Positions 2,157 through 43,490 of a DNA stretch of 64,000 nt are shown in pieces. The translations under genes and the position numbers were made by a program. The stretch lies in the IMG/VR virus record IMGVR_UViG_3300032237_000809, positions 1-64,000 of that record. One strand, written 5' to 3'. The notes beneath the pieces were generated by a model, which saw only the letters and a list, made by a program, of their open reading frames with translations, was not told where the DNA came from and searched no databases. The stretch's first letter is position 1, and the number at the start of each line of letters is the position of its first letter. The stretch comes from a virus (taxonomy: Duplodnaviria > Caudoviricetes).

Positions 2157-2435
2157 ATGCTTTCTACTTTCGACGCCAACTTTCAGCGGATTCGTGATGT
2201 TGAGCAGTTCGCCATTGATTCTATCAATCGCGGCGGATTGCACGGCGATGGTATGATTGGGGAGGCAGAGTATCACTGCCAGGGTTATGCTGGAGAGGGC
2301 AATCCTCCGCATGATGTTATCATTGCGTGTCGCATTAAAAACGTAAACGGCAATCGCCGGTTCACGTTTACACTTAACGGCAAGCGAATCGCCTGCCATA
2401 AGATAGCACTCCGACTCGGAGAGTTGGGCGTCTAA
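2157..2435 (+). CDS. hypothetical early protein (92 aa)
   Basis: ATG2157 in ORF 2142..2435; followed by hairpin GGGCGGCAG..CTGCCGCCC. Confidence 0.7.
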   Translation: MLSTFDANFQRIRDVEQFAIDSINRGGLHGDGMIGEAEYHCQGYAGEGNPPHDVIIACRIKNVNGNRRFTFTLNGKRIACHKIALRLGELGV

Positions 2436-2663
2436 GTGTAATCATTCGTGGGCGGCAGTAAGGTATACGCTGCCGCCCTAATCGTTCGTTTATTGTTTCA
2501 TTCGTGCGTTCGTGATTTGCAGGGTATTTGGTATATTTTGGCGGCGCCCTTTAAGCCCATGGGTCCTATGGAGTCTACAAATACTTGCTTTCGGCATATA
2601 TATATCATGCTATAATCAACTTATAAAACCCATCAAAATTAAAATTTTTCCCGCCAAAAAATT

Positions 2664-3266
2664 ATGCCCCAAAAGATCTCAGAAGAAAAAATAAAATGGA
2701 TAAAGGAACTCCGAGAATCTGGAAATACATATGATAGTATTCGTAAAATTACAAAATCCTCAAAGAGGACTGTAAAAAAAATATGTGATTCATGCGTAAA
2801 AAATACATATCCGTCCGTAAAAATACCAGAAGGAATGAAAGAAACTGAATATCTGGGATATTATATTACTGAGGATGGAAGAGTATATCGAAAACCTGGA
2901 AGATGTGATGTAACTGGAATATATGGCGAACCAGATGAGAATGGATTAATATACTTAAAACCGGGGTTAAGGGGTAACCCAAAATATCCACAACATCATT
3001 ATGAATGCGTAAATATCTCAATTTGGGACAATAATGGAAAATATTTAAAGCGAATAACAAAATCAATTCATCAATTAGTTGCAGAAGTATTTGTTCCAAA
3101 TCCAAATAATTATACTGAAATAGATCATATTGACAGAAATAAAAAAAATAATTCTAAAGATAATTTAAGATGGACGACAAGATTTGATAATATGAGTTCT
3201 TGGGAAAGAGATGATGAATATAGAAAAAAATTGTCAGAAAATAATAGATGGAAGAATAAAATCTAA
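2664..3266 (+). CDS. HNH homing endonuclease (N-terminal HTH, NUMOD4-like region)
   Basis: IHQLVAEVF..NP..Y.EIDHIDRNKKNN..DNLRW motif; upstream TG-C-TATAAT at 2608-2616. Confidence 0.9.
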   Translation: MPQKISEEKIKWIKELRESGNTYDSIRKITKSSKRTVKKICDSCVKNTYPSVKIPEGMKETEYLGYYITEDGRVYRKPGRCDVTGIYGEPDENGLIYLKPGLRGNPKYPQHHYECVNISIWDNNGKYLKRITKSIHQLVAEVFVPNPNNYTEIDHIDRNKKNNSKDNLRWTTRFDNMSSWERDDEYRKKLSENNRWKNKI

Positions 3267-3308
3267 AAATACTATATAAATTGAAATTGTAACTTCATAT
3301 ACAAAAAC

Positions 3309-3482
3309 ATGAAAAAAAATTCCGGGGAAATTTTTGAGTCCGTACAGGTCGATCCAATTAATGGCGAATATTATTTGGTTATTCCTGAGATCATTGCAAA
3401 TGAACTCTCATGGTACGAAGATACTGAGATTAGTTTTAATCTTGAAGGAAATGAGGTAGTTCTCACAGAAAGGAAGCATTGA
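3309..3482 (+). CDS. small AbrB/MazE-like DNA-binding protein (57 aa)
   Basis: Manual translation MKKNSGEIFESVQVDPINGEYYLVIPEIIANELSWYEDTEISFNLEGNEVVL; swapped-hairpin pattern IP..I...L.W..D..I.F. Confidence 0.65.
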   Translation: MKKNSGEIFESVQVDPINGEYYLVIPEIIANELSWYEDTEISFNLEGNEVVLTERKH

Positions 3483-3507
3483 CAAACGATATATAATACG
3501 TTATGAT
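3479..3507 (+). promoter_or_regulatory. sigma70 promoter
   Basis: TTGACA-N17-TATGAT. Confidence 0.75.
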
Positions 3508-3531
3508 ACTGAAGTAACCGATTGAAATTCA

Positions 3532-3654
3532 ATGGAGTTGATTGATCGAATTAATAAAAATCTTCCAAATATTCTCAACAAAAATCACTTTCACAGATCA
3601 ACAATTTCTCACATTGTAAATAACAAAACTTATACACATTTATTAGAAAATTAA
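3532..3654 (+). pseudogene. probable homing-endonuclease C-terminal HTH remnant (40 aa)
   Basis: RSTISHIVNNKTYTHL resembles terminal HTHs of phage homing endonucleases; no catalytic domain. Confidence 0.4.
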
Positions 3655-3659
3655 TTAAA

Positions 3660-4415
3660 ATGGCAAAGGGATTCACGATTAAAGCAAAAGCCCCAACGGC
3701 TAACCCAGAACAAGAATGGGATTATGAAAAAGCAAAAGAATTAGTACGCGGAAAATCCGTAGTCTTTTGTCTTCCTGGAAGAGGAGTTTCATACCAATAT
3801 TTGAAGAGTTTCGTACAACTTTGCTTTGATTTGGTACAGAACGGAGCAAGTATTCAAATCTCGCAAGACTATTCATCCATGGTAAACTTTGCAAGATGCA
3901 AATGTTTAGGTGCAAATGTACTGCGTGGACCTGATCAGATTCCTTGGGATGGCAAACTCAATTACGATTGGCAACTTTGGATTGACTCGGATATCGTTTT
4001 CAATACAGAAAAGTTTTATCAATTAGTTTTAATGGAGAAAGATATTGCAGCGGGTTGGTACTGTACAGAAGATGGAGTGACAACTTCTGTGGCACACTGG
4101 TTAGAAGAAGATGATTTCCGCAATAATGGTGGAGTCATGAATCATGAAACACTTGAAAGCATCTCAAAGCGTCGGAAACCATTTACAGTAGACTATACTG
4201 GATTCGGATGGATTCTGATTAAGAATGGAGTCTTTGAACACGCAGAAATGAAGTATCCATGGTTTGCACCTAAAATGCAAGTCTTTGATTCTGGAGACGT
4301 TCAAGATATGTGTGGAGAAGATGTAAGCTTCTGTCTGGATGCAAAAGAAGCAGGATTTGAAATCTGGTGCGATCCTCGTATCAGAGTCGGTCACGAAAAA
4401 ACAAGAATCATTTGA
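3660..4415 (+). CDS. glycosyltransferase (GT-A fold)-like protein, conserved in cyanomyophages
   Basis: WIDSDI DxD motif; TGFG, GED.SFC and RVGHEK motifs. Confidence 0.8.
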   Translation: MAKGFTIKAKAPTANPEQEWDYEKAKELVRGKSVVFCLPGRGVSYQYLKSFVQLCFDLVQNGASIQISQDYSSMVNFARCKCLGANVLRGPDQIPWDGKLNYDWQLWIDSDIVFNTEKFYQLVLMEKDIAAGWYCTEDGVTTSVAHWLEEDDFRNNGGVMNHETLESISKRRKPFTVDYTGFGWILIKNGVFEHAEMKYPWFAPKMQVFDSGDVQDMCGEDVSFCLDAKEAGFEIWCDPRIRVGHEKTRII

Positions 4416-4419
4416 TATC

Positions 4420-4590
4420 ATGACAGACAAGTACAACATTCTATGTAAGGGACGTAAAATTTATTCATCACTTTCAGAGGAAGAGTACTTCAATATAATG
4501 GAGGATCTGGCAGTTAGTTTCTATCAGACAGGTTCTCCAAATCCAGATGAAATTGAAACTGAAATTTTGACAACTACTGAGGAAAATTAA
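4420..4590 (+). CDS. hypothetical protein (56 aa)
   Basis: ATG4420 in ORF 4339..4590, directly after the upstream gene. Confidence 0.75.
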   Translation: MTDKYNILCKGRKIYSSLSEEEYFNIMEDLAVSFYQTGSPNPDEIETEILTTTEEN

Positions 4591-4591
4591 C

Positions 4592-4732
4592 ATGTCTAAG
4601 AGACCTTCACTGTCTGGTAACATTATTGAATCAAAACCCAAAAAAACTCGTCAAGGGGCTGGTGCTCATACGAAGTACGCAGCATCTTCTCGTAATGGGG
4701 CTCATAAGAAGTACAGGGGACAAGGAAAATGA
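4592..4732 (+). CDS. small basic protein ending KKYRGQGK (46 aa)
   Basis: Manual translation; C-terminal YRGQG motif typical of a T4-like phage small protein family; GAGG SD. Confidence 0.75.
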   Translation: MSKRPSLSGNIIESKPKKTRQGAGAHTKYAASSRNGAHKKYRGQGK

Positions 4733-4851
4733 TGGCAAATAAGAAACCAAAGAAAAATCCCACCTTTGGTAATGGTGACGGTCGAAAAGCGACTGGTCAA
4801 TGTAGATCTGACGCTCAAAAAAAATCGTCAAATACTAAGAAGAAAAAATGA
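4732..4851 (+). CDS. small basic hypothetical protein (39 aa)
   Basis: Manual translation MANKKPKKNPTFGNGDGRK...; start/stop overlaps on both sides. Confidence 0.55.
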   Translation: MANKKPKKNPTFGNGDGRKATGQCRSDAQKKSSNTKKKK

Positions 4852-5045
4852 TTCAACTTAATCCGCTAATCCCATTAATTACTTCAAAAGGTAAGGGATG
4901 GGCATTTTTTTTAATTGATCGATCTCAAGAACATGACTTGGAATGGGTGGTTTTTCTTGATGATACCGGGGAATGCTGGACCTTTAAGAACAGTGATATT
5001 AGAATTCAAGAGAATTATACATTACATCGAAAATTAAACAAATAA
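4848..5045 (+). CDS. hypothetical protein (65 aa)
   Basis: ORF track; ATGA coupling. Confidence 0.75.
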   Translation: MIQLNPLIPLITSKGKGWAFFLIDRSQEHDLEWVVFLDDTGECWTFKNSDIRIQENYTLHRKLNK

Positions 5046-5071
5046 ATAACTTTTTAGTGTGATTTTATGCC

Positions 5072-5413
5072 TTGGAAAGATTCTCAATGGGTAAGCACCT
5101 CTTGTTAGAGGTTTATGATGTCAAATATAAACTTTTGAATGATGGTATTGCCATTCAGGAAGTCATGAAGCGTGGTATTAAACGTGCTAATATGACAATT
5201 CTGAACATTTATCAACATTGTTTTTATCCTCAGGGAATTACGATTGTCATTGCACTTTCAGAAAGTCATGTCTCGTGTCATACATGGCCTGAAGAAGGTG
5301 CCATTGCAATTGATGTCTATACATGTGGTGAAGGGAATCCTAAATTAATTGCTCTGGAACTTTTAAAATACTTGAATTCAAATAATTTTAGACTCAAAGA
5401 GATAGATCGTTAA
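5072..5413 (+). CDS. speD: S-adenosylmethionine decarboxylase proenzyme (AMG)
   Basis: GKHL..E, F.PQG.T, LSESH (autocleavage/pyruvoyl site), HTWPE and DVYTCG motifs. Confidence 0.95.
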   Translation: MERFSMGKHLLLEVYDVKYKLLNDGIAIQEVMKRGIKRANMTILNIYQHCFYPQGITIVIALSESHVSCHTWPEEGAIAIDVYTCGEGNPKLIALELLKYLNSNNFRLKEIDR

Positions 5414-5481
5414 ATATAAGAAGGGGAGATAGCAACCTCCTTCAAAAAAAAGTTCTGTTTTTAAACAAAACAGGAGCTAAA

Positions 5482-5727
5482 ATGTCAAATTTACCAGTTG
5501 ATAGAGACATAAATTACATGAGAGCAATGTGGGGAACCACAAAATTGGTTACTGATTATGAAAAACCAAGAACAATTCAGGAAATCATGCATGATGATAT
5601 TCCTCTGAGAAAGCATCATTTGAAAGAACAAACCGAACTTCATCAAAAAATTCGTAATGATGCAGATTATGATGATTGGGAATATGGAACAGAACCAAAT
5701 TATGGTTCTTCATGGAAATCGACATAA
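5482..5727 (+). CDS. hypothetical protein upstream of gp25
   Basis: ORF track; AGGAG SD inside a hairpin. Confidence 0.8.
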   Translation: MSNLPVDRDINYMRAMWGTTKLVTDYEKPRTIQEIMHDDIPLRKHHLKEQTELHQKIRNDADYDDWEYGTEPNYGSSWKST

Positions 5728-5753
5728 ATAAAATATAGGAATTTTATTCAAAT

Positions 5754-6155
5754 ATGGCAATACAAAGGATATCTAGATCATTTAAAGATATTAGTTTATC
5801 CTTTGTTCCACATCCTGTGACAAAGGATCTACCAATACTTAAAAATGAACGTGCAATCACAAGATCTATTCGTAATTTAGTAGAAACTATTCCAACAGAA
5901 AGATTCTTCAATTCTTTGATTGGATCTAATGTTCGATCAAGTTTATTTGAATTTGTAGACTATGGTACTGCATCAATTGTAGAAAATCAAATTAAAACTA
6001 CTATTAGTAATTTTGAACCAAGAGTCAATAACGTAAAAGTAGAAGTAAATCCTCAACCTGATGATAATTCATTTGATGTTACAGTTATTTTTGACATCAT
6101 TGGACAAGAATTTCCCACACAACAATTCACATTTCTGCTAGAGGCAACAAGATAA
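5754..6155 (+). CDS. gp25: baseplate wedge subunit gp25
   Basis: FKDISLSF..HP.T.D, SI.NL..T...ERFF, FEPRV; synteny with gp6. Confidence 0.95.
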   Translation: MAIQRISRSFKDISLSFVPHPVTKDLPILKNERAITRSIRNLVETIPTERFFNSLIGSNVRSSLFEFVDYGTASIVENQIKTTISNFEPRVNNVKVEVNPQPDDNSFDVTVIFDIIGQEFPTQQFTFLLEATR

Positions 6156-6156
6156 A

Positions 6157-8079
6157 ATGCCTTTTACCAAATTTACAAATCTAGATTTTGATCAAATAAA
6201 GACTTCTATCAAGGATTATCTCCGTGCTAACTCCACATTCACGGACTTTGACTTTGAAGGATCAAATTTTTCTGTCTTAATTGACACCCTTGCATATAAT
6301 ACCTATATTACAGCATTTAACTCAAATATGATTGTGAACGAATCCTTTTTGGATTCTGCTACACTCAGAGAAAATGTTGTTTCTTTGGCAAGAAATATTG
6401 GTTACGTACCACGCTCCAGAACCTGCTCTAAGGCACAAGTAACCATTAGTGGCACCACCACATCAACAGAAGATACTGCGACCATTCCAGCAGGTTTGAT
6501 ATGTGTAGGAACTGCTAATGATACATCATACACTTTTTCAGTTCCAGAGAATATTACGACAAAAATAGTAGATGGATCAATTACATTCAATAAAGTTGAT
6601 TCGCTTGGGAATGTTTCCGGAATTGATATCTATCAAGGAACATTTTTAACAAAAACTTTTATAGTAGATGGATCTCTTGATCAGAGATTTATTTTAGATA
6701 ATTCTAATATTGATACATCTACAATTACCGTGTATGTAAAAGGAATTCATGATAGCGGTCTTGGTGTAAAATATTCTTTAGTTGAAAATATATTAAATAT
6801 TGCTTCTACTTCGGAAATTTATTTAATTCAAGAGATTCAAGATGAAAAATATGAACTTTACTTTGGTGATGGAATATTCGGTAAAAAATTAGAAAATAAC
6901 GCTGTTATTACAATCAATTATATCACGACAGATGGATCTGATGGAAATGGATGCTCTCAATTTTCTTTACAAACAACTTTAAAATCATCTTCAGGAAATC
7001 CGATTTCATTTGGCCAAGTAACTGTTACTACAAATCAATCTTCAATCAATGGTGGAGAAATAGAACCAATTGATTCAATTAAGTATTTTGCTCCAAGAAT
7101 ATACTCTTCTCAATATAGGGCAGTTACTGCTCGTGACTATGAGGCAATTATTAAAAAGATTTATCCAGATACAGAATCTGTTGCGATTGTTGGTGGAGAA
7201 GAATTGGATCCCCCAGAATATGGAACTGTTAATATAAGTATCAAACCAAAGAATGGTACATTTGTATCACAATTTAATAAACAACAAATTAAAAATAAAT
7301 TAAAACAATATAGTGTTTCTGGAATTAATCAAAAGATAATTGACCTTAAAATACTATATGTTGAAATTGATTCATCAATTTATTACAATTCTTCTCAAGT
7401 ATCTGCCGTAGAGTCTTTAAAATCAAAAGTAATCAAATCTTTGACTGATTACTCAAACTCAATTGATCTCAATAGATTTGGAGGAAGATTCAAATATAGT
7501 AAAGTTTTACAGATCATCGACAATACTGATATTGCTATAACTTCTAATATCACCAAAGTCATTATCAGAAGAGATATTAAAGCATTAAAAAATCAGTTTG
7601 CTCAATATGAATTATGTTTTGGGAATAAATTTCATGTAAATTTAAATGGATACAATATAAAATCTACTGGATTTAAAATTGCCAATGAAACTGACACTTT
7701 ATACTTTACGGATACTCCAAATTCTGATGGATTGACTGGGGTAATATCAATTGTAAAAGGAATTCCAAATCAAGAAGGAAAAATTCAAATAATTGTAAAA
7801 TCTGCAGGAACAATTGATTATCAGAAGGGTGAAATTAAATTAGGTACTATTAATATAATTTCAACAGAAAAAGAGAATGATATTATTGAAATACAGGCAT
7901 ATCCAGAATCAAATGATGTTTTAGGATTGAATGACTTATATTTGAATTTTAATATCTCAAAAAGTATAATAAATATGGTCAGAGATGTGATAGCATCTGG
8001 AGATGAAATATCTGGAACAGTATTCTCTAGAGATTTTTATACTTCAAGTTATTCAAACGGAAACCTAATAAGAAAGTAA
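6157..8079 (+). CDS. gp6: baseplate wedge subunit gp6
   Basis: LDFDQIK..DFDFEGS..LAYNT..ESFLDSA..RENVVS.A..IGY.PRS; Q.RAVT..DY. Confidence 0.95.
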   Translation: MPFTKFTNLDFDQIKTSIKDYLRANSTFTDFDFEGSNFSVLIDTLAYNTYITAFNSNMIVNESFLDSATLRENVVSLARNIGYVPRSRTCSKAQVTISGTTTSTEDTATIPAGLICVGTANDTSYTFSVPENITTKIVDGSITFNKVDSLGNVSGIDIYQGTFLTKTFIVDGSLDQRFILDNSNIDTSTITVYVKGIHDSGLGVKYSLVENILNIASTSEIYLIQEIQDEKYELYFGDGIFGKKLENNAVITINYITTDGSDGNGCSQFSLQTTLKSSSGNPISFGQVTVTTNQSSINGGEIEPIDSIKYFAPRIYSSQYRAVTARDYEAIIKKIYPDTESVAIVGGEELDPPEYGTVNISIKPKNGTFVSQFNKQQIKNKLKQYSVSGINQKIIDLKILYVEIDSSIYYNSSQVSAVESLKSKVIKSLTDYSNSIDLNRFGGRFKYSKVLQIIDNTDIAITSNITKVIIRRDIKALKNQFAQYELCFGNKFHVNLNGYNIKSTGFKIANETDTLYFTDTPNSDGLTGVISIVKGIPNQEGKIQIIVKSAGTIDYQKGEIKLGTINIISTEKENDIIEIQAYPESNDVLGLNDLYLNFNISKSIINMVRDVIASGDEISGTVFSRDFYTSSYSNGNLIRK

Positions 8080-36126: not shown

Positions 36127-36981
36127 ATGTCATATAATCCTCTTCCACAACCAGCAAATGTAGTTGCCATTAGTGCTGGTTCATCGGTCACAGAAGTTAA
36201 TAGATTTCCAGTAGGTATTGGTTCCACTGGTTTTGTAACACTTAAAACTGGAAATACTCCAATCAGTTTTTCCAATCCACTTCCAGTATCATTGGGTTCA
36301 TCCAATATTACTATTACTGGTAATGTAAATGTAGGAACTACGGTATCAGTCACTAGTACTCCACAAAATCCAGTTCACACTCACATTACTGAAGTTGGTT
36401 CAAGTGGTATTTTGCAGGATATGGGTATCCCATATCTTCCAGTGGGTATATCAACTTTTAATAATATTATAGTTATCAAACAACCTGAAGGCAGTTTATA
36501 TTCATTCAACAATCACGCAACAAATACAAATCGCGGTTGGACTATGGACGATACAATGAGACCTGTGCTGAGTATTAGAGTGAATAGTTCTGGAACCACT
36601 ATAGCAGATTTGGCAGAAATTGCAGAATATGAAATTGGAAATAATAACGCAAGTCAAAGCACTATCATCTATGAGTGGTATGAGGGTGATATTAATATTT
36701 CTGGAGCAGCAATTCCTGCTTGGAATTCATTAGGAACAAAATTGCAATATAGAGTATATCAAGATAAGTATAGCAGTAATGCGGGAAATACCTTTACACA
36801 AAATAGTTCTGTTATGAGACATAGTGGAGTTATTATTGGAAAAAATACTTCAGGTGATGAAGGACCATCAACTATGCATGGTGGAGCATCTCCAAATATG
36901 CTTACACTTTGTATGAGAAGAGTTGATAACTCAACGAAATTGGATGTTTGGTTTGCTTTTACTTGTAAGGAATTATCTTAA
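36127..36981 (+). CDS. hypothetical protein (284 aa)
   Basis: ORF track; tight operon spacing. Confidence 0.8.
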   Translation: MSYNPLPQPANVVAISAGSSVTEVNRFPVGIGSTGFVTLKTGNTPISFSNPLPVSLGSSNITITGNVNVGTTVSVTSTPQNPVHTHITEVGSSGILQDMGIPYLPVGISTFNNIIVIKQPEGSLYSFNNHATNTNRGWTMDDTMRPVLSIRVNSSGTTIADLAEIAEYEIGNNNASQSTIIYEWYEGDINISGAAIPAWNSLGTKLQYRVYQDKYSSNAGNTFTQNSSVMRHSGVIIGKNTSGDEGPSTMHGGASPNMLTLCMRRVDNSTKLDVWFAFTCKELS

Positions 36982-36986
36982 CTATT

Positions 36987-38876
36987 ATGACAATCGAAGA
37001 TATTCAACTAAAGCAATCCGATGCTTATCTCTCTAATCCAAATTTAAAGAGAGCAAACACAACTATTGAGTGGACTGAAGATCAAATTATTGAGTTTTTG
37101 AGATGTAAAGAAAATCCTGTATATTTTGCAAAAAATTACATTAAAATTGTTTCTCTTGATGAAGGACTTGTTCCTTTTGAAATGTATCCGTTTCAGGAAA
37201 AATTAGTTCAACGATTTCATGAGAATCGTTTTAATATATGTAAAATGCCACGCCAAACCGGCAAATCTTTAGCATTAGACACTCCAATTCCAACTCCAAA
37301 TAGTTGGACAACAATGGGGGATTTAAAAGTTGGGGATGTTATTTTTTCCCCCTCTGGCGATAGTGTTTCGGTTACTATGAAAACTGAAATAATGTATAAT
37401 CATAATTGCTATAAATTATATTTTGATAATGGTGAGGAAATAGTTGCAGATGCGGGTCATTTATGGGAGGTTGATAGTTCATATTGGAGAACTGGTAAAA
37501 AAGTATTAACATCTCAAGAAATATACGATAAGTACGAAACAAAAACTAAAAATAAAAGAGGAAGTGGCGTTCAAGGGTCATTATATATTGAAAAATCCAA
37601 ACCAATCAATTTTATTAAAAACTCATTAGATATTGATCCATATCTTCTTGGAGTTTGGTTGGGAGATGGATATTCTTCAGATGGAAGAATTGTAGCACAT
37701 AAAGATGATTATGAGTTCTATAAGACTATATTCGATATAGAGCATGAAAGAGAAGATGGTAATTGTATGAGATTTAAAGTTAGAGATTTTAAATTAAAAT
37801 TAAAATCTCACAATTTATTAAAAAACAAACATATTCCACAAAATTATTTAAGATCTTCCTATGAAGATAGGTTAGAATTACTTCGTGGATTAATGGATAC
37901 CGATGGATCTGTTACAAAAAATACTAGATCTTTTGAATTTTATCAAAAAAATTATGATTTTATATTACAAGTTGTGGAATTGCTCTCTACCCTTGGCATT
38001 AAATCTAATATTAGAAGAAAAAAAATAAAAGACATTTACTATCACACAGTATCATTTACTACCAAAGAAAGAATATTCAATCTTTCAAGAAAATTGAATA
38101 ATATTGATGTGCTAAGACCAACAAGAATTCAAGAAAATCGACATTATATTCATAAGATAGAAAAAGTTGATAGTGTTCCAGTTGCTTGTATTCAAGTAGA
38201 TAGTGAAGATCATCTATTCTTATGTGGTAAGACTTTTATACCAACTCACAACTCTACAACTTGCGTATCCTACTTACTCCATTATGCAGTTTTTAATGAT
38301 AATGTAAATATTGCTATTCTAGCAAACAAAGCATCTACTGCTAAAGATCTTTTAGGAAGATTGCAACTAGCATATGAAAATCTTCCTAAATGGATGCAAC
38401 AAGGTATTGTATCTTGGAACAAGCAATCATTAGAACTAGAAAACGGATCAAAAATTGTTGCTGCTTCAACTTCCGCATCTGCTGTTCGTGGTGGATCTTA
38501 TAATATCATATTTTTGGACGAATTTGCGTTTATTCCAAATAATATTGCAGATCAGTTCTTTGCGTCGGTTTATCCTACTATTTCTTCCGGTAAATCTACC
38601 AAAGTAATTATTGTATCTACGCCTCACGGTATGAATCACTTCTACCGTATGTGGCATGATGCTGAGAAGGGTAAAAATGAATATGTTCCAACAGATGTTC
38701 ATTGGTCTGAAGTTCCTGGTAGAGATGCAAAATGGAAGGCATCTACGATTTCCAACACCAGCGAATCCCAATTTAAGGTAGAATTTGAAAGTCTTGACTA
38801 TACAACTGTTATAAATAATGGTATGATAGATGTATCTATCGGAGATTTATATGAACAACTCAAAAACGAACAGTAA
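36987..38876 (+). CDS. gp17: terminase large subunit gp17, N-terminal (ATPase) fragment with a contiguous intein and a split-intein N-half
   Basis: Walker A PRQTGK/STT interrupted by an intein; Walker B IIFLDEFAF; VSTPHG; ends QFKVEFE followed by 28-aa IntN. Confidence 0.95.
   Translation: MTIEDIQLKQSDAYLSNPNLKRANTTIEWTEDQIIEFLRCKENPVYFAKNYIKIVSLDEGLVPFEMYPFQEKLVQRFHENRFNICKMPRQTGKSLALDTPIPTPNSWTTMGDLKVGDVIFSPSGDSVSVTMKTEIMYNHNCYKLYFDNGEEIVADAGHLWEVDSSYWRTGKKVLTSQEIYDKYETKTKNKRGSGVQGSLYIEKSKPINFIKNSLDIDPYLLGVWLGDGYSSDGRIVAHKDDYEFYKTIFDIEHEREDGNCMRFKVRDFKLKLKSHNLLKNKHIPQNYLRSSYEDRLELLRGLMDTDGSVTKNTRSFEFYQKNYDFILQVVELLSTLGIKSNIRRKKIKDIYYHTVSFTTKERIFNLSRKLNNIDVLRPTRIQENRHYIHKIEKVDSVPVACIQVDSEDHLFLCGKTFIPTHNSTTCVSYLLHYAVFNDNVNIAILANKASTAKDLLGRLQLAYENLPKWMQQGIVSWNKQSLELENGSKIVAASTSASAVRGGSYNIIFLDEFAFIPNNIADQFFASVYPTISSGKSTKVIIVSTPHGMNHFYRMWHDAEKGKNEYVPTDVHWSEVPGRDAKWKASTISNTSESQFKVEFESLDYTTVINNGMIDVSIGDLYEQLKNEQ
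37266..38252 (+). mobile_element. 329-aa intein with LAGLIDADG endonuclease, class-3 signature
   Basis: SLALDTPIPTP...ADAGHLW...LLGVWLGDG...LLRGLMDTDG...VACIQVD...IPTHN|S; removal restores GKSTT. Confidence 0.95.
38790..38873 (+). mobile_element. split intein N-fragment (28 aa, SLDYTTVINNGMIDVSIGDLYEQLKNEQ)
   Basis: Follows extein EFE; block-A-like xLDY.T.I plus I.DLY..L, as in TerL atypical split inteins. Confidence 0.85.
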
Positions 38877-39996
38877 AAATATCACAAAAGAACAATTGGA
38901 ACATTTGTATCGTGATAAAAAAATGACTTTAGATGAGATTGGGATATATTTTGGATATGCAGATCGCCAACCCATTATTCGTTTATTTAAAAAATTTAAT
39001 ATAAAATCAAGAACAAAAGTGGAAAGTTCTGCCATAGTATTTGAAAATAAAAACAATATTCCGTCGAGAGATGAATTAAAAAAAGATTTAGAAACTATGA
39101 GCGTTTCTAAGGCAGCAAAAAAATATAATATTCATAGAGGATCTTTAACAAAAATTATAAAAAAATATGGTTTGGAAATAGATTATTTTGTAAATTTAAA
39201 TATCAAAGAAAATATTAACAACGAAGAATATAAAGATTTATCCCCCATAGAATTATCTTTGATATTTGGCGTAGAAGTACAGACTATAAAATACTACAAA
39301 AAAACATTCACTAGAAACCAATATGATTTAGAAACCATAAAGGAAAAATTTAACAAATATAATTTTAATTTTAATAGTAAAAGTTTAATAAAACAAATTA
39401 AATGTTCCGATAAAAATTTATATGATTCTATTTTTGAATTAACAAAAAATCAGTATTTACAAAGTAATAAATTTACTGAAAGAATTTATCGCCTTTTTAA
39501 TAATTATAGTGAAGATAAAATTGAACAATGTAAATATTGTAAAAATCCATTAAAATTTTATACTTATGAATTGGGATATGGTAATAGTGAGCATAATATT
39601 TGTAAAATGTGCAACCATTCTATTAATGGGGTATCATTAATTTCCCAAAAATTGTTTTGGAGCATTTATAATTCATTGAATTTTCAAGAAAAAAAGTTTT
39701 GCAAATTTTCAGAATTAAATATAGAAAAGAAAATTTATATAACTAGCAATGATAAATGTAAGTTACTAGAAGTAAAAAATAAATTAAATAAAAATTGCTA
39801 TTTTATTGATTTTATTTTCAATAATAAAATTATAGAATTTGATGGAACTTATTATCATAAAGATAAAGATAAAGATATAGCAAAAGACAAATTTTTAAAT
39901 CTCAAAGGTTATGAAGTTCTCCATATTGATGAATTGGAATATAAAAATTATCCCGAACAAATTTTAAACAAATGCATACAATTCCTGAAAGCGTAG
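38851..39996 (+). CDS. free-standing Vsr/DUF559-like homing endonuclease between the split-intein halves
   Basis: N-terminal HTH repeats, CxxC..CxxC, C-terminal IDF...IIEFDGTYYH...KD.FL...GYEVLHI.E; GGAG SD before ATG38851; TATAAATA at 38810. Confidence 0.85.
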   Translation: MNNSKTNSKNITKEQLEHLYRDKKMTLDEIGIYFGYADRQPIIRLFKKFNIKSRTKVESSAIVFENKNNIPSRDELKKDLETMSVSKAAKKYNIHRGSLTKIIKKYGLEIDYFVNLNIKENINNEEYKDLSPIELSLIFGVEVQTIKYYKKTFTRNQYDLETIKEKFNKYNFNFNSKSLIKQIKCSDKNLYDSIFELTKNQYLQSNKFTERIYRLFNNYSEDKIEQCKYCKNPLKFYTYELGYGNSEHNICKMCNHSINGVSLISQKLFWSIYNSLNFQEKKFCKFSELNIEKKIYITSNDKCKLLEVKNKLNKNCYFIDFIFNNKIIEFDGTYYHKDKDKDIAKDKFLNLKGYEVLHIDELEYKNYPEQILNKCIQFLKA

Positions 39997-40319
39997 TATT
40001 AAACAAAAAAGGACACAAAATACTTTCTCCTGAAGGTTTAGTATCCTTTTTTGGTATAAACAAAATAACTAAAAATAGTTACATTCATCTAAAGTTTTCT
40101 AATGGAAATGAATTGAAATGTTCTTTAGATCACCCATTATCTACAATTGATGGAATAATTAAAGCAAAGGATTTGGACAAATTTACAGAAATTTATACTA
40201 AGGATGGTGGATGTTTTTTAAAAAAATCAAAAATCATTGAGCAACAAATAGATCTATATGATATTGTAAATTCTGGTATTAACCACCTATATTATTCAAA
40301 TGATATAATATCACATAAC
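39972..40319 (+). mobile_element. split intein C-fragment (116 aa)
   Basis: KILSP.G...F.GI, block B KCSLDHP, block F LYDI, block G LYYSNDIISHN|C. Confidence 0.9.
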
Positions 40320-41225
40320 TGCGAGTTCTTAGGATCGGTAGATACATTAATCAATGCATCAAAACTTAGAACGATGGTTTATGAGGATCCATCTAAAAGA
40401 AATAAAGGTCTTGATGTTTATGAAGATCCAAAAGAAGATCACAATTATTTAATTACTGTTGACGTGGCAAGAGGTGTTGGAAACGATTATTCTGCATTTA
40501 TAGTATTTGATATTACAAATTTTCCATACAGAACAGTAGCAAAATATAAGAATAATGAAATAAAACCTATGATGTTTCCTGCTATTATTCATGAAGTAGC
40601 AAAAGCGTATGATGATGCTTGGTTATTGATTGAAGTTAATGACATTGGTGATCAGGTGGCAAGTATTCTTCATTTTGATCTTGAATATGATAATGTTTTA
40701 ATGTGTTCAATGCGCGGCCGCGCAGGTCAAATTGTAGGATCTGGATTTAGTGGTAAAAAATCTCAACTTGGTGTCCGTATGACATCAGCGGTTAAAAAGT
40801 TAGGATGTTCTAACTTAAGAACCTTAGTTGAGGACGATAAACTTCTGATTAATGACTATGATATGATCTCAGAACTTACTACATTTATTCAAAAAAGTAG
40901 ATCATTTGAAGCAGAAGAGGGATGTAATGATGATTTAGCAATGTGTCTTGTTATATTTTCTTGGTTAGTTGCTCAAGATTATTTTAAAGAAATGACGAAT
41001 AATGATGTTCGTAAAAGAATCTATGAAGAGCAAAAGAATCAAGTAGAACAAGATATGGCACCCTTTGGATTTATTTTGGATGGATTAGATGATCCCGAAA
41101 TTTACGTAGAACCTGAGACTGGTGATAGATGGTTATTTGCAACAGCACAAAATGAAAATCAACCTTTAGAAATTTGGAATGTTGATGAGTATGGTGATAG
41201 ATCTCATGAATGGAATTATCGCTAA
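39972..41225 (+). CDS. gp17: terminase large subunit gp17, C-terminal (nuclease) fragment preceded by split-intein C-half
   Basis: After SHN: CEFLGSVDTLI..., VDVARG.G.DYSA, IE.NDIG, NDDLAM RNase-H-like nuclease motifs. Confidence 0.95.
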   Translation: MHTIPESVVLNKKGHKILSPEGLVSFFGINKITKNSYIHLKFSNGNELKCSLDHPLSTIDGIIKAKDLDKFTEIYTKDGGCFLKKSKIIEQQIDLYDIVNSGINHLYYSNDIISHNCEFLGSVDTLINASKLRTMVYEDPSKRNKGLDVYEDPKEDHNYLITVDVARGVGNDYSAFIVFDITNFPYRTVAKYKNNEIKPMMFPAIIHEVAKAYDDAWLLIEVNDIGDQVASILHFDLEYDNVLMCSMRGRAGQIVGSGFSGKKSQLGVRMTSAVKKLGCSNLRTLVEDDKLLINDYDMISELTTFIQKSRSFEAEEGCNDDLAMCLVIFSWLVAQDYFKEMTNNDVRKRIYEEQKNQVEQDMAPFGFILDGLDDPEIYVEPETGDRWLFATAQNENQPLEIWNVDEYGDRSHEWNYR

Positions 41226-41282
41226 AGAGGCAGAATTTTATAAATACTTTTAGAATAATTCTGGACTTGTCGGGGAATAAAA

Positions 41283-43490
41283 ATGGCGCTAAATTTAGCA
41301 TCTCCTGGAATTGTAGTAAGGGAAGTTGACTTAACAGTTGGGAGAGTTGGGCCAGCTTCAAATAAAATTGGTGCAATCGTAGCTCCTTTTGCAAAGGGAC
41401 CTGTAGATTCACCAACTCTGGTTGAAACAGAGAAAGATTTACTAAACAATTTTGGTGAGCCATATGCAACAGATAAAAATTATGAGCATTGGTTAGTTGC
41501 TTCTTCTTATCTTGCATATGGGGGATCACTTAGAGTAGTGAGAGCAGACGACACATCATTTAAAAATGGTATGGTAGGTACTGCTGCTAGTGTTAAAATT
41601 AAAAGTTTAGAGCACTATACTGAATTAGGGTATGATGAAAACACAATTACTGATGTAACTATTGCTGCAAGAAATCCTGGTTCCTGGTCTAATGGAATTA
41701 GAGTAGCAATGATTGATGCTAAAGCAGATCAAATTTTAAATGGAATTGACACTACTAACATCACTATTGGATGTGGTCTTACACAATCTGCTAATAGTAA
41801 AGTTAAGGCAGGAATTGGAACAACATCAATTCTTGGAGGATACATAAAAGGTATTGTTACTGGTGTTGGAACTGCTGTAGGTCTTTCAACGAATCAAATT
41901 TTAGTTAAGTTTTTATCACATGTTTCTACTGGAGGAACAATTACAAATATTGATTATCAACCATCAAGTATCTATTCTTTTACTAATTCTGGATTTGTTT
42001 CAATTAGTACAAGTGGTGGATATATTGGAACTGCTGCATATAGTTCACAATTAGATTGGTTTGATCAGCAACAACTTGTACTTGGAAATACTGCAGTTGG
42101 ATCTGGAACAACATATATAACTATTAATTGGAATAATATTGCCGATCGTCCATCTACTTCAGATTATGCAGAATCTAGAGGATCAAGATTCGATGAAGTT
42201 CATATTGTAGTAATTGATGCCTTAGGGTCAATTACTGGTAATGCAGGAACAATTCTTGAGAAGCATTTAAATATTTCCAAAGCATCTGATGCACAATTTT
42301 CAGTTGGAAGTCCTTCTTACTGGAGAAAATATCTTGCAAATAATTCTGAATATATTTTTGGTGGATCTGCTCCAACAGGTATTGTAACTACTGGATTTAG
42401 TTATGATTTTACATTATCAAATGATATTGGTTGGGATCAAACTGCCGATGGTGGAACTGGAGGAGTTATTTTTGGTGGTACTGGAGCACAAAACTTTGTT
42501 CTTTCCAAAGGATCAGATTATGGTGGGAAAACGGGAATTAGTTCAACAGGTGCATTAACTGCATCAGTTGGAAAACTTTCTGAAGGATATGATTTATTTG
42601 AAAATACGGATAATTTTAAAGTTGATTTTCTCTTAATGGGTTCTGCAAATTATGGTATCTATGATGCTCAAGCACTTGCAGAAAAGGTCATTTCTGTTGC
42701 AGAATTAAGAAAAGATGCACTTGCATTTATTTCACCATATAGAGGATCTTCATTATCAGATACTTCAGATCAAAGCAAAGTAACTGTGTATTCGGATGCA
42801 ACAATTACTGATAAACTTATTGAATTCTATGCACCTATTACATCTTCAACTTATGCAGTATTTGATTCTGGATATAAGTACATGTATGATAGATTCTCAG
42901 ATACTTTTAGATATGTTCCCTTAAATGGTGATATTGCTGGAACTTGTGCTCGTAATGATATTAACAACTTCCCATGGTATTCGCCAGCAGGAACTTCAAG
43001 AGGAGCAATCTTGAACGCAGTGAAACTTGCATATAATCCATCTAAATCTCAAAGAGATCGTCTTTACACAAATAGAATTAATCCAGTTATCTTCTCCCCA
43101 GGAGCAGGTATTGTTTTATTTGGTGATAAAACTGCTTATGGTAAAGCATCTGCATTTGATAGAATTAACGTTCGTAGACTTTTTGTTTACTTAGAAACTG
43201 CAATTTCTTCAGCTGCTAAGGATCAACTTTTCCAGTTTAATGATGAAATCACAAGAACCAACTTCGTAAATATTATAGAACCATTCCTCCGCGATGTTCA
43301 AGCAAAGAGGGGAATTTATGATTATGTTGTTGTTTGTGATGAAACCAATAATACCGCAGCTGTAATTGATTCTAACGAATTTGTTGCAGATATTTACATC
43401 AAACCAGCAAGATCAATTAACTTCATTGGTCTTACTTTTGTCGCCACCAGAACTGGTGTTTCATTTGACGAAGTAATCGGTCAATTCTAA
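41283..43490 (+). CDS. gp18: tail sheath protein gp18
   Basis: SPG.VVREVDLT, PW.SPAG..RG, RD.LY...INPV, GDKT, FDRINVRRLF, IKPARSINFI. Confidence 0.97.
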   Translation: MALNLASPGIVVREVDLTVGRVGPASNKIGAIVAPFAKGPVDSPTLVETEKDLLNNFGEPYATDKNYEHWLVASSYLAYGGSLRVVRADDTSFKNGMVGTAASVKIKSLEHYTELGYDENTITDVTIAARNPGSWSNGIRVAMIDAKADQILNGIDTTNITIGCGLTQSANSKVKAGIGTTSILGGYIKGIVTGVGTAVGLSTNQILVKFLSHVSTGGTITNIDYQPSSIYSFTNSGFVSISTSGGYIGTAAYSSQLDWFDQQQLVLGNTAVGSGTTYITINWNNIADRPSTSDYAESRGSRFDEVHIVVIDALGSITGNAGTILEKHLNISKASDAQFSVGSPSYWRKYLANNSEYIFGGSAPTGIVTTGFSYDFTLSNDIGWDQTADGGTGGVIFGGTGAQNFVLSKGSDYGGKTGISSTGALTASVGKLSEGYDLFENTDNFKVDFLLMGSANYGIYDAQALAEKVISVAELRKDALAFISPYRGSSLSDTSDQSKVTVYSDATITDKLIEFYAPITSSTYAVFDSGYKYMYDRFSDTFRYVPLNGDIAGTCARNDINNFPWYSPAGTSRGAILNAVKLAYNPSKSQRDRLYTNRINPVIFSPGAGIVLFGDKTAYGKASAFDRINVRRLFVYLETAISSAAKDQLFQFNDEITRTNFVNIIEPFLRDVQAKRGIYDYVVVCDETNNTAAVIDSNEFVADIYIKPARSINFIGLTFVATRTGVSFDEVIGQF

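Follow-up and report, generated by a model that had tools for sequence, protein, structure and literature searches.

Gene 17 of an uncultured T4-like cyanomyovirus, which encodes the large terminase (TerL), has been invaded by two independent selfish elements: a contiguous intein inserted within the Walker-A motif (intein 1), and a three-part cassette in which the N- and C-terminal halves of a split intein (IntN and IntC) flank the free-standing gene of a predicted Vsr-like homing endonuclease. The locus lies in a 64,000-nt stretch of DNA (positions 1–64,000 of IMG/VR record IMGVR_UViG_3300032237_000809; hereafter the window), the record itself being 125.5 kb long and ~58% complete. According to the explanation that we favor, and that we consider very probable, gene 17 would carry a cis-splicing class 3 intein together with a split-intein cassette whose halves trans-splice, so that a terminase of 573 residues is restored.

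Anatomy of the gene 17 locus

The locus consists of three open reading frames (ORFs) on one strand: ORF1 (36987–38876, 629 aa), the endonuclease ORF (38830/38851–39996) and ORF3 (39972–41225, 417 aa). The exteins were delimited by alignment to the uninterrupted TerL proteins of Synechococcus phages S-SRM01 and S-SKS1. ORF1 comprises a first stretch of extein (residues 1–93), intein 1 (residues 94–422), a second stretch of extein (residues 423–601) and IntN (residues 602–629), at the end of which a stop codon is found; ORF3 comprises IntC (residues 1–116) and the remainder of the extein (residues 117–417). A first-pass annotation of this DNA had proposed the layout extein(93)–intein(329)–extein(179)–IntN(28), an endonuclease ORF, then IntC(116)–extein(301), and every one of these numbers proved correct from the coordinates (Table 1). 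Deletion of the inserts in silico gives a TerL of 573 aa and 65.7 kDa, in which the sequences ...TGK-STT... and ...VEFE-CEFLGS... are restored and which aligns with the TerL of S-SRM01 (573 aa) over 573/573 residues, without gaps and with 85% identity; this alignment bears out the earlier claim of a 573-aa TerL with restored GKSTT and VEFE-CEFLGS junctions. The Pfam families Terminase_6N, LAGLIDADG_3, DUF559 and Terminase_6C were each matched at the expected place. Note that the G+C content is ~20% across the middle (endonuclease) ORF versus ~34% in the flanks, which fits foreign DNA.

Table 1. Features of the gene 17 locus (window coordinates) and the basis of their assignment
Feature	Position	Strand	Basis
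TerL extein part 1, aa 1–93, ends with Walker-A ...RQTGK	36987..37265	+	Alignment to S-SRM01 and S-SKS1 TerL; Lys = T4 gp17 K166
Intein 1, 329 aa, contiguous, LAGLIDADG domain	37266..38252	+	Pfam and PDB 6BS8 matches
TerL extein part 2, ORF1 aa 423–601, remainder of the ATPase domain, ends with ...FKVEFE	38253..38789	+	T4 gp17 ATPase domain (PDB 3EZK, 2O0H), E 2e-38
IntN, 28 aa (nt 38790–38873), and stop codon	38790..38876	+	Aligns to the N-terminal ~30 residues of contiguous same-site mini-inteins
TATAAATA, T4-type late-promoter-like motif within IntN codons	38810..38817	+	Function putative
Predicted EDxHD (Vsr-like) homing endonuclease gene, free-standing, 381 aa	38851..39996	+	Pfam DUF559; fold and profile matches to 3R3P
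IntC, 116 aa, blocks B, F and G	39972..40319	+	PDB 6DSL_B (CatC), E 1.8e-17
TerL extein part 3, 301 aa and stop codon, nuclease domain, starts with Cys+1 (CEFLGS...)	40320..41225	+	Pfam Terminase_6C; PDB 3C6A (RB49) and 3EZK (T4 gp17 from ~residue 356), E 7e-40

The cassette formed by IntN, the endonuclease gene and IntC is present in at least seven independent IMG/VR contigs, and the ratio of nonsynonymous to synonymous substitution rates (dN/dS) ranges from 0.05 to 0.24 over all parts of the two elements; together, these observations exclude chance or an assembly artefact as the origin of the arrangement. They also bear on the idea that the interruption is spliced out of the RNA, as a group I or group II intron containing an endonuclease ORF, or that it reflects misassembly or a decaying pseudogene. 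Group I introns that contain endonuclease ORFs are indeed known from T4-like phages, but here the break is bordered by intein blocks A, B, F and G, which are in frame with the exteins, this layout recurs under purifying selection, and no Rfam match was obtained at E ≤ 1 over positions 36800–41400, so that we find this idea hardly credible.

One host gene present as two ORFs that are bounded by intein halves, with a free-standing endonuclease gene in between, is the arrangement of the fractured genes described by Dassa, London, Stoddard, Schueler-Furman and Pietrokovski (2009; PMC2677866), among which is a gp17-like terminase locus from Lake Gatun. The precedent to which the first-pass annotation appealed, fractured genes with split inteins around a Vsr-like endonuclease, is indeed provided by this study, where the Vsr-like/EDxHD type makes up half of the fractured loci. 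As there, the split-intein halves of the window locus surround a free-standing, same-strand Vsr-like endonuclease gene within a phage gene of DNA metabolism. Unlike the loci of Dassa et al., however, the window locus is whole on one 125-kb contig and contains a second, contiguous intein, and the same genome also has a fractured helicase gene of the gp41-1 type.

The split intein and the endonuclease gene between its halves

The split-intein site corresponds to residue ~354 of T4 gp17, at the junction between the ATPase and nuclease domains. IntN is limited to block A, starts with a serine (Ser1) and is devoid of cysteine; IntC contains block B (Ser51..His54), block F and block G (His115-Asn116). 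The match between IntC and the engineered consensus CatC involves query residues 9–121 and is aligned through the ...SH(N/A)|CE junction; a phmmer search of the PDB with the 36-aa IntN region gave no match, this query being too short. Placed end to end, IntN and IntC are collinear with contiguous mini-inteins found at the same TerL site in L026, L030 and L036 (L-numbers refer to the comparison sequences, mostly IMG/VR contigs, L001 being S-SRM01, MW015081.1), and the break between the halves falls in the loop after the first helix. The split therefore lies between blocks A and B, leaving block A to a short IntN and the other blocks (B, F and G) to a long IntC, which is the atypical type of split.

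By its sequence, the split intein is assigned to the atypically split TerL family, which includes AceL-TerL, GOS-TerL and Cat (Thiel 2014; Bachmann & Mootz 2015; Stevens 2018, PDB 6DSL; reviewed in PMC11766414) and with which it shares a TerL host, a short IntN reduced to block A and a long IntC. The lengths of the halves differ slightly, with 28 aa for IntN compared to the reported 25 (AceL) and 37 (GOS), and 116 aa for IntC compared to ~104. The Ser1/Cys+1 pair is shared with GOS-TerL, in which such a pair is reported to have been first seen (PMC11766414), the subtype assignment being based on the description given in this review and on the homology with CatC. According to the same review, GOS-TerL (Ser1/Cys+1, atypical split) and AceL-TerL trans-splice in vitro. 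Note that the IntC of the window, hereafter type A, is only ~34% identical to that of the Cat-like alleles (type B, with Cys1 and a GIY-YIG gene) present at the same site in other phages.

Ser1, the block B histidine, the His-Asn pair and Cys+1 are conserved in all type-A alleles, and the dN/dS of IntC is 0.05–0.15. Ser1 is retained with both families of serine codons: its codon (38790–38792) is AGT in the window, L005, L006, L009 and L010, and TCG in L003 (972–974), L004 and L013. The two codons are most simply connected via a cysteine codon (TGT), which would mean either that serine is selected at this position or that a Cys-to-Ser change occurred twice. From the conservation of the catalytic residues and from the dN/dS, we infer that IntN and IntC splice in trans. 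An alternative would be that the halves are never ligated and that TerL works as a non-covalent two-chain enzyme, an ATPase chain and a nuclease chain whose association depends on dead intein halves. The position of the break, exactly at the junction between the two domains, is one where two chains could conceivably work, but dead halves do not account for the conservation across alleles of Ser1, His54, His115-Asn116 and Cys+1 at such a low dN/dS, relatives in the split-TerL-intein family are reported to splice, and a P-loop intein left unspliced would inactivate the ATPase anyway; a two-chain enzyme thus seems extremely improbable.

The anatomy claimed at first pass, a cis-splicing intein plus a split intein around a Vsr-like endonuclease, is as stated, and the catalytic residues on which both reactions would depend are present and conserved. 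In the mechanism that we propose, intein 1 would remove itself in cis, most likely via a branched-intermediate route relying on the block-F residue Cys308, and the cassette, which breaks gene 17 into two cistrons, would impose the separate translation of an N-precursor of 72.6 kDa and a C-precursor of 47.7 kDa. As in AceL-TerL, GOS-TerL and Cat, the short IntN would then dock into an IntC that lacks little of a whole intein, and Ser1 and Cys+1 would perform the trans-splicing reaction that joins the ATPase and nuclease domains. Altogether, cis- and trans-splicing, in whichever order and at whatever rate they proceed, would yield the 65.7-kDa, 573-aa terminase. As for the two endonucleases, they would cut element-free gp17 alleles during co-infection, repair of the break copying the element in, and would thereby serve the elements and not the phage.

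The endonuclease ORF is open from position 38830, but its homologues and a GGAG sequence lying 6 nt upstream (38841–38844) favor the ATG at 38851 as the start, giving a protein of 381 aa. In different reading frames, the gene shares 26 nt with IntN at its 5′ end and 25 nt with IntC at its 3′ end. The protein is built of N-terminal helical, helix-turn-helix (HTH)-like repeats, a CxxC...CxxC element and a C-terminal nuclease domain (D320, E329, D331, H336). Its match to Pfam DUF559 (E 2.7e-7) is above the cut-off, and 79 homologues were found, most of them with PF04480 or PF18741. Within a set of 28 homologues, no variation is seen at D320, E329 or H336, and D331 is kept in at least 90%. A single-sequence search of the PDB gave no match, the link to I-Bth0305I being found by profile and fold searches: the profile matched 3R3P, the catalytic domain of I-Bth0305I, with an E-value of 1.4e-4, and an AlphaFold (AF2) model built from the 28 homologues (predicted local distance difference test score, pLDDT, of 87) was matched to the same structure by Foldseek with a probability of 0.99 and a TMt of 0.56, the E-values for the whole model being poor owing to the presence of several domains. 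The dN/dS of the gene is 0.15–0.24.

These matches identify the product as a predicted EDxHD (Vsr-like) homing enzyme akin to I-Bth0305I, the prototype of the family (Taylor et al. 2011, PMC3239194; PDB 3R3P), with which it shares a Vsr-like nuclease fold, conserved E, D and H residues and N-terminal HTH/NUMOD-like repeats for DNA binding. It differs from I-Bth0305I, whose gene lies within a group I intron of recA, in being encoded by a free-standing gene between intein halves, in being longer (381 aa) and in having the extra CxxC...CxxC element; the sequence similarity is confined to ~50 residues. The mosaic signature of related alleles described below bears indirectly on its putative site-specific cleavage of the element-free allele.

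TATAAATA lies 34 nt upstream of the endonuclease ATG and is conserved in the endonuclease-bearing alleles; 12 of the 13 copies of this motif in the window are on the gene strand, and one copy is found 37 nt before gp18. Strand bias and position are what suggest a promoter role, and we speculate that TATAAATA and the GGAG sequence could provide the endonuclease gene and the overlapping C-half with a late transcript of their own. Two observations speak against such an arrangement: the motif is not enriched in the window (13 copies observed versus 13.7 expected), and a predicted RNA hairpin occluding the endonuclease Shine-Dalgarno sequence in read-through transcripts is not significant (z −0.28). 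Counting against the proposed translation of a separate C-precursor, no Shine-Dalgarno sequence is visible before ORF3, whose start lies inside the endonuclease gene. A more far-reaching proposal, which we regard as very unlikely, is that splicing constitutes a two-key post-translational gate on DNA packaging, exploited by the phage and not merely tolerated. The keys would be the class 3 cysteine of intein 1, possibly redox-sensitive by analogy with its M. smegmatis DnaB relative, and a slow Ser1/Cys+1 trans-splicing reaction, and the C-half may be driven from the internal late promoter. If such a gate existed, both the stoichiometry of the halves and the redox or light state of the cyanobacterial host would govern terminase activation.

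The intein of the Walker-A motif

Intein 1 is inserted exactly between the lysine and the serine of the Walker-A motif (...RQTGK|STT...), which is equivalent to K166|T167 in T4 gp17; this P-loop site is a 'classic' insertion point in phage TerL and cellular ATPases (PMC5050341). Its key residues are Ser1, His65, Trp67, Cys308 (block F) and Thr327-His-Asn329, followed by Ser+1. Intein 1 matches Pfam LAGLIDADG_3 (E 1.5e-13) and contains two LAGLIDADG motifs with acidic residues, at residues 220–229 (...LGDGY) and 298–308 (...MDTDGS) of ORF1. The splicing domain matches PDB 6BS8, the class 3 DnaB intein 1 of Mycobacterium smegmatis, with an E-value of 1.8e-25, and the class 3 triad, formed by W67, C308 (block F:4) and T327 (block G:5), is invariant in nine sequences, i.e. 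the window and eight IMG/VR homologues. The dN/dS of intein 1 is about 0.1.

On the basis of the triad and of the homology with 6BS8, we file intein 1 as a putative class 3 intein, with Cys308 as the likely nucleophile. With the class 3 P-loop inteins (M. smegmatis and M. chimaera DnaB intein 1, mycobacteriophage TerL inteins; Tori 2010, PMC2807308; Kelley 2016, PMC5050341; Kelley 2018, PMC6195587), it shares the WCT triad, the insertion site between the Walker-A Lys and Ser/Thr, a LAGLIDADG domain as found in many phage TerL inteins, and the numbering of His65 and Trp67, which is that of the Mch DnaB1 intein (PMC7664689). It differs from them by its host, the T4-type (Terminase_6) TerL of a cyanophage, and by the presence of Ser instead of Ala at residue 1.

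This serine is the feature that fits least well with a class 3 assignment, since class 3 inteins are characterized by the lack of an N-terminal Cys, Ser or Thr nucleophile, and it leaves a class 1 route compatible with the sequence. One may therefore ask whether intein 1 uses the ordinary class 1 route, with the N-terminal Ser94 of ORF1 as the first nucleophile and the WCT residues as a relic, given that both the window and L015 carry at position 1 a serine that class 1 inteins can use. However, residue 1 is Ala in six of the eight homologues and Met in another, only L015 having Ser, and yet the dN/dS is low and Trp, Cys(F) and Thr are invariant; moreover, the nearest solved relative is itself a class 3 intein. 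We consequently regard a class 1 route as rather improbable. Since relatives carry Ala or Met at position 1 while the triad stays invariant, Ser1 is probably not the nucleophile but a dispensable, neutral variant of the usual Ala. The presence of Ala or Met in the relatives also led us to reject, as the leading reading, a novel chemistry combining a class 3 mechanism with an N-terminal nucleophile.

Alleles in related phages and lateral transfer

To estimate the frequency of the two insertions, we used the 80 closest IMG/VR TerL C-domains, chosen without regard to inteins, 57 of which cover both insertion sites. Neither element is present in 46/57, the P-loop insert alone in 6/57, the domain-junction insert alone in 5/57 and both in 0/57, double insertions being expected at ~1% from the single frequencies. 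A search targeted at IntC revealed at least six further doubles (L005, L010, L013, L015, L017 and L026). The first-pass annotation had called the stacking of two inteins and two endonucleases in one packaging gene unusual: it is indeed infrequent, as no double occurs in the unbiased sample, but it recurs in these contigs, and the cultured Vibrio phage VP-1 has a similar layout. Double invasion is thus uncommon but recurrent.

The doubles differ in their composition. The architecture of L005 is that of the window. L010 (4811–5005) contains both inteins, but its endonuclease gene has been deleted, leaving an 83-nt remnant, and the intein is still split. In L013, the P-loop intein is a different one (44% identity) and the interior of the endonuclease gene has been lost between two AATTGGAA repeats, a case of microhomology (4857–5005); IntC starts with GTG and the intein is again still split. 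Judging from these two alleles, gene 17 evidently stays fractured when the endonuclease gene is lost. L015 and L017 combine an intein 1 that is 99% identical to that of the window with a Cat-like Cys1 split intein and a GIY-YIG gene. This Cat/AceL-like Cys1 cassette (L015:4412–4981), which contains a 189-aa GIY-YIG gene, is also found at the junction site in L016, L019, L021 and L022, and the TerL genes that harbor it are 90–98% identical to that of the window. The occurrence of different cassettes at the same junction in such closely related genes indicates that two rival elements compete for one site. In L014, the halves of a Cys1-type split intein are separated by 6 nt only.

Two other contigs display further variations on this theme. 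In L012 (1371–5681), TerL is divided among three ORFs and two split inteins are present. The halves of the first, at the P-loop site, have no gene between them; those of the second, at the domain junction, are separated by a gap of 2.1 kb that contains two antisense ORFs, one of 500 aa that is endonuclease-like and one of 152 aa that resembles a DNA methyltransferase by eye. L154 (IMGVR_UViG_3300027977_000411) has a 1.4-kb P-loop insert with IntC-like (29%) and EDxHD-like (40%) matches, which would make it a split intein with a Vsr-like endonuclease at the Walker-A site, and not a contiguous intein.

Comparison of the alleles reveals a mosaic. Intein 1 differs from its counterpart in L015 by 9 mismatches over 987 nt, whereas the flanking exteins are 82–92% identical, and divergence resumes 21 nt upstream of the intein and at its last base. 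Likewise, the cassette is 95–100% identical to those of L003 and L005 over long stretches, whereas the exteins are 60–88% identical; in L005 the breakpoint precedes IntN by 9 nt, and in L003 it lies no more than 3 nt from the end of IntC. Elements that are 95–100% identical across exteins of 60–92% identity, with breakpoints at the junctions or no more than ~20 nt away, indicate that each element was recently transferred laterally (homing) as a unit.

One breakpoint does not fit this pattern and counts against the transfer of the whole cassette: the 5′ breakpoint with respect to L003 lies 19 nt inside IntN, suggesting that some exchange took place between alleles already carrying the split intein. 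It would be accounted for if the EDxHD endonuclease targeted split or contiguous intein alleles lacking the endonuclease gene, instead of intein-less gp17, and moved alone into existing inteins. Split alleles without the endonuclease gene do exist (L010, L013 and L014), and the integration of endonuclease genes into inteins was proposed by Dassa et al. (2009; PMC2677866). L013, however, is a deletion derivative and not a naive target, since both ends of the endonuclease ORF are retained and joined at the AATTGGAA microhomology, and the 5′ boundary of L005 and the 3′ boundary of L003 coincide with the extein junctions, as expected if IntN, the endonuclease gene and IntC move together into empty sites. 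While we deem it unlikely that the endonuclease moves alone, this is an alternative to be taken seriously; homing of the whole cassette into intein-less gp17 is the reading that we prefer.

Every component of the locus belongs to a described family, and fractured gp17 genes have been known since the study of Dassa et al. in 2009 and the annotation in 2010 of the cultured Aeromonas phage PX29, whose genes 17A and 17B (N-intein / GIY-YIG / C-intein) likewise correspond to a gp17 with a split intein and an endonuclease. In Vibrio phage VP-1 (MH363700), a P-loop cis mini-intein coexists with an endonuclease-interrupted intein at the homologous ...EYD|C site, which implies that both cis- and trans-splicing are needed; this requirement is therefore not unique to the window. 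The resemblance has its limits: the endonucleases of PX29 and VP-1 are of the GIY-YIG type and fused to or overlapping an intein half, whereas that of the window is of the EDxHD type and free-standing; the P-loop intein of VP-1, unlike intein 1, has no LAGLIDADG domain; and the IntC sequences of both phages are 29–35% identical to that of the window. Our literature search yielded no paper explicitly describing the TerL double. Contiguous inteins are combined with a split intein in the DnaE gene of Trichodesmium.

These findings leave current understanding as it is. The locus would offer, on a long contig, a complete natural example of a protein that depends on both a cis- and a trans-splicing event; S-SRM01, the nearest cultured relative in this lineage, has a TerL without interruption. 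Perhaps more useful than the locus itself are the population data: TerL genes with neither, one or both elements coexist with rival cassettes (Ser1 with EDxHD, Cys1 with GIY-YIG) at one site, split alleles lacking the endonuclease gene and contiguous mini-inteins, a ready series of alleles with which the origin, spread and decay of fractured genes can be tested. AceL-TerL, GOS-TerL and Cat have already been made into protein-labelling tools, for which the 28-aa IntN variants with Ser1 and no Cys are additional natural candidates.

Three side observations were made. First, gp17 of Escherichia phage kaaroe (L168, MN850574; 2760–5871) is fractured elsewhere, inside the ATPase domain (position 106/107 of the Terminase_6N profile), with its N-half fused to a TnsA/endonuclease-I-like nuclease domain; the first ORF is annotated as 'hypothetical protein'. 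Second, two GenBank product names appear to be swapped in S-SRM01 (MW015081.1), the 573-aa TerL (2725–4446) being called 'tail sheath protein' and the 725-aa sheath protein (4509–6686) 'terminase large subunit'. Third, the gp41-like helicase gene of the same genome is also fractured, at ~77.2–80.4 kb of the record and hence outside the window (L088:340–1671, 1721–2386 and 2409–3005; L087:1834–2259). More specifically, the helicase N-half ends in an IntN of ~88 aa that starts with a block A motif and is followed by a GIY-YIG endonuclease gene (221 aa) and an extra ORF of 198 aa; the IntC that comes next ends with ...THN|SSS and closely resembles that of the widely used gp41-1 split intein (PDB 6QAZ). 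Together with the two TerL inteins, this split intein brings the number of inteins in the phage genome to at least three.

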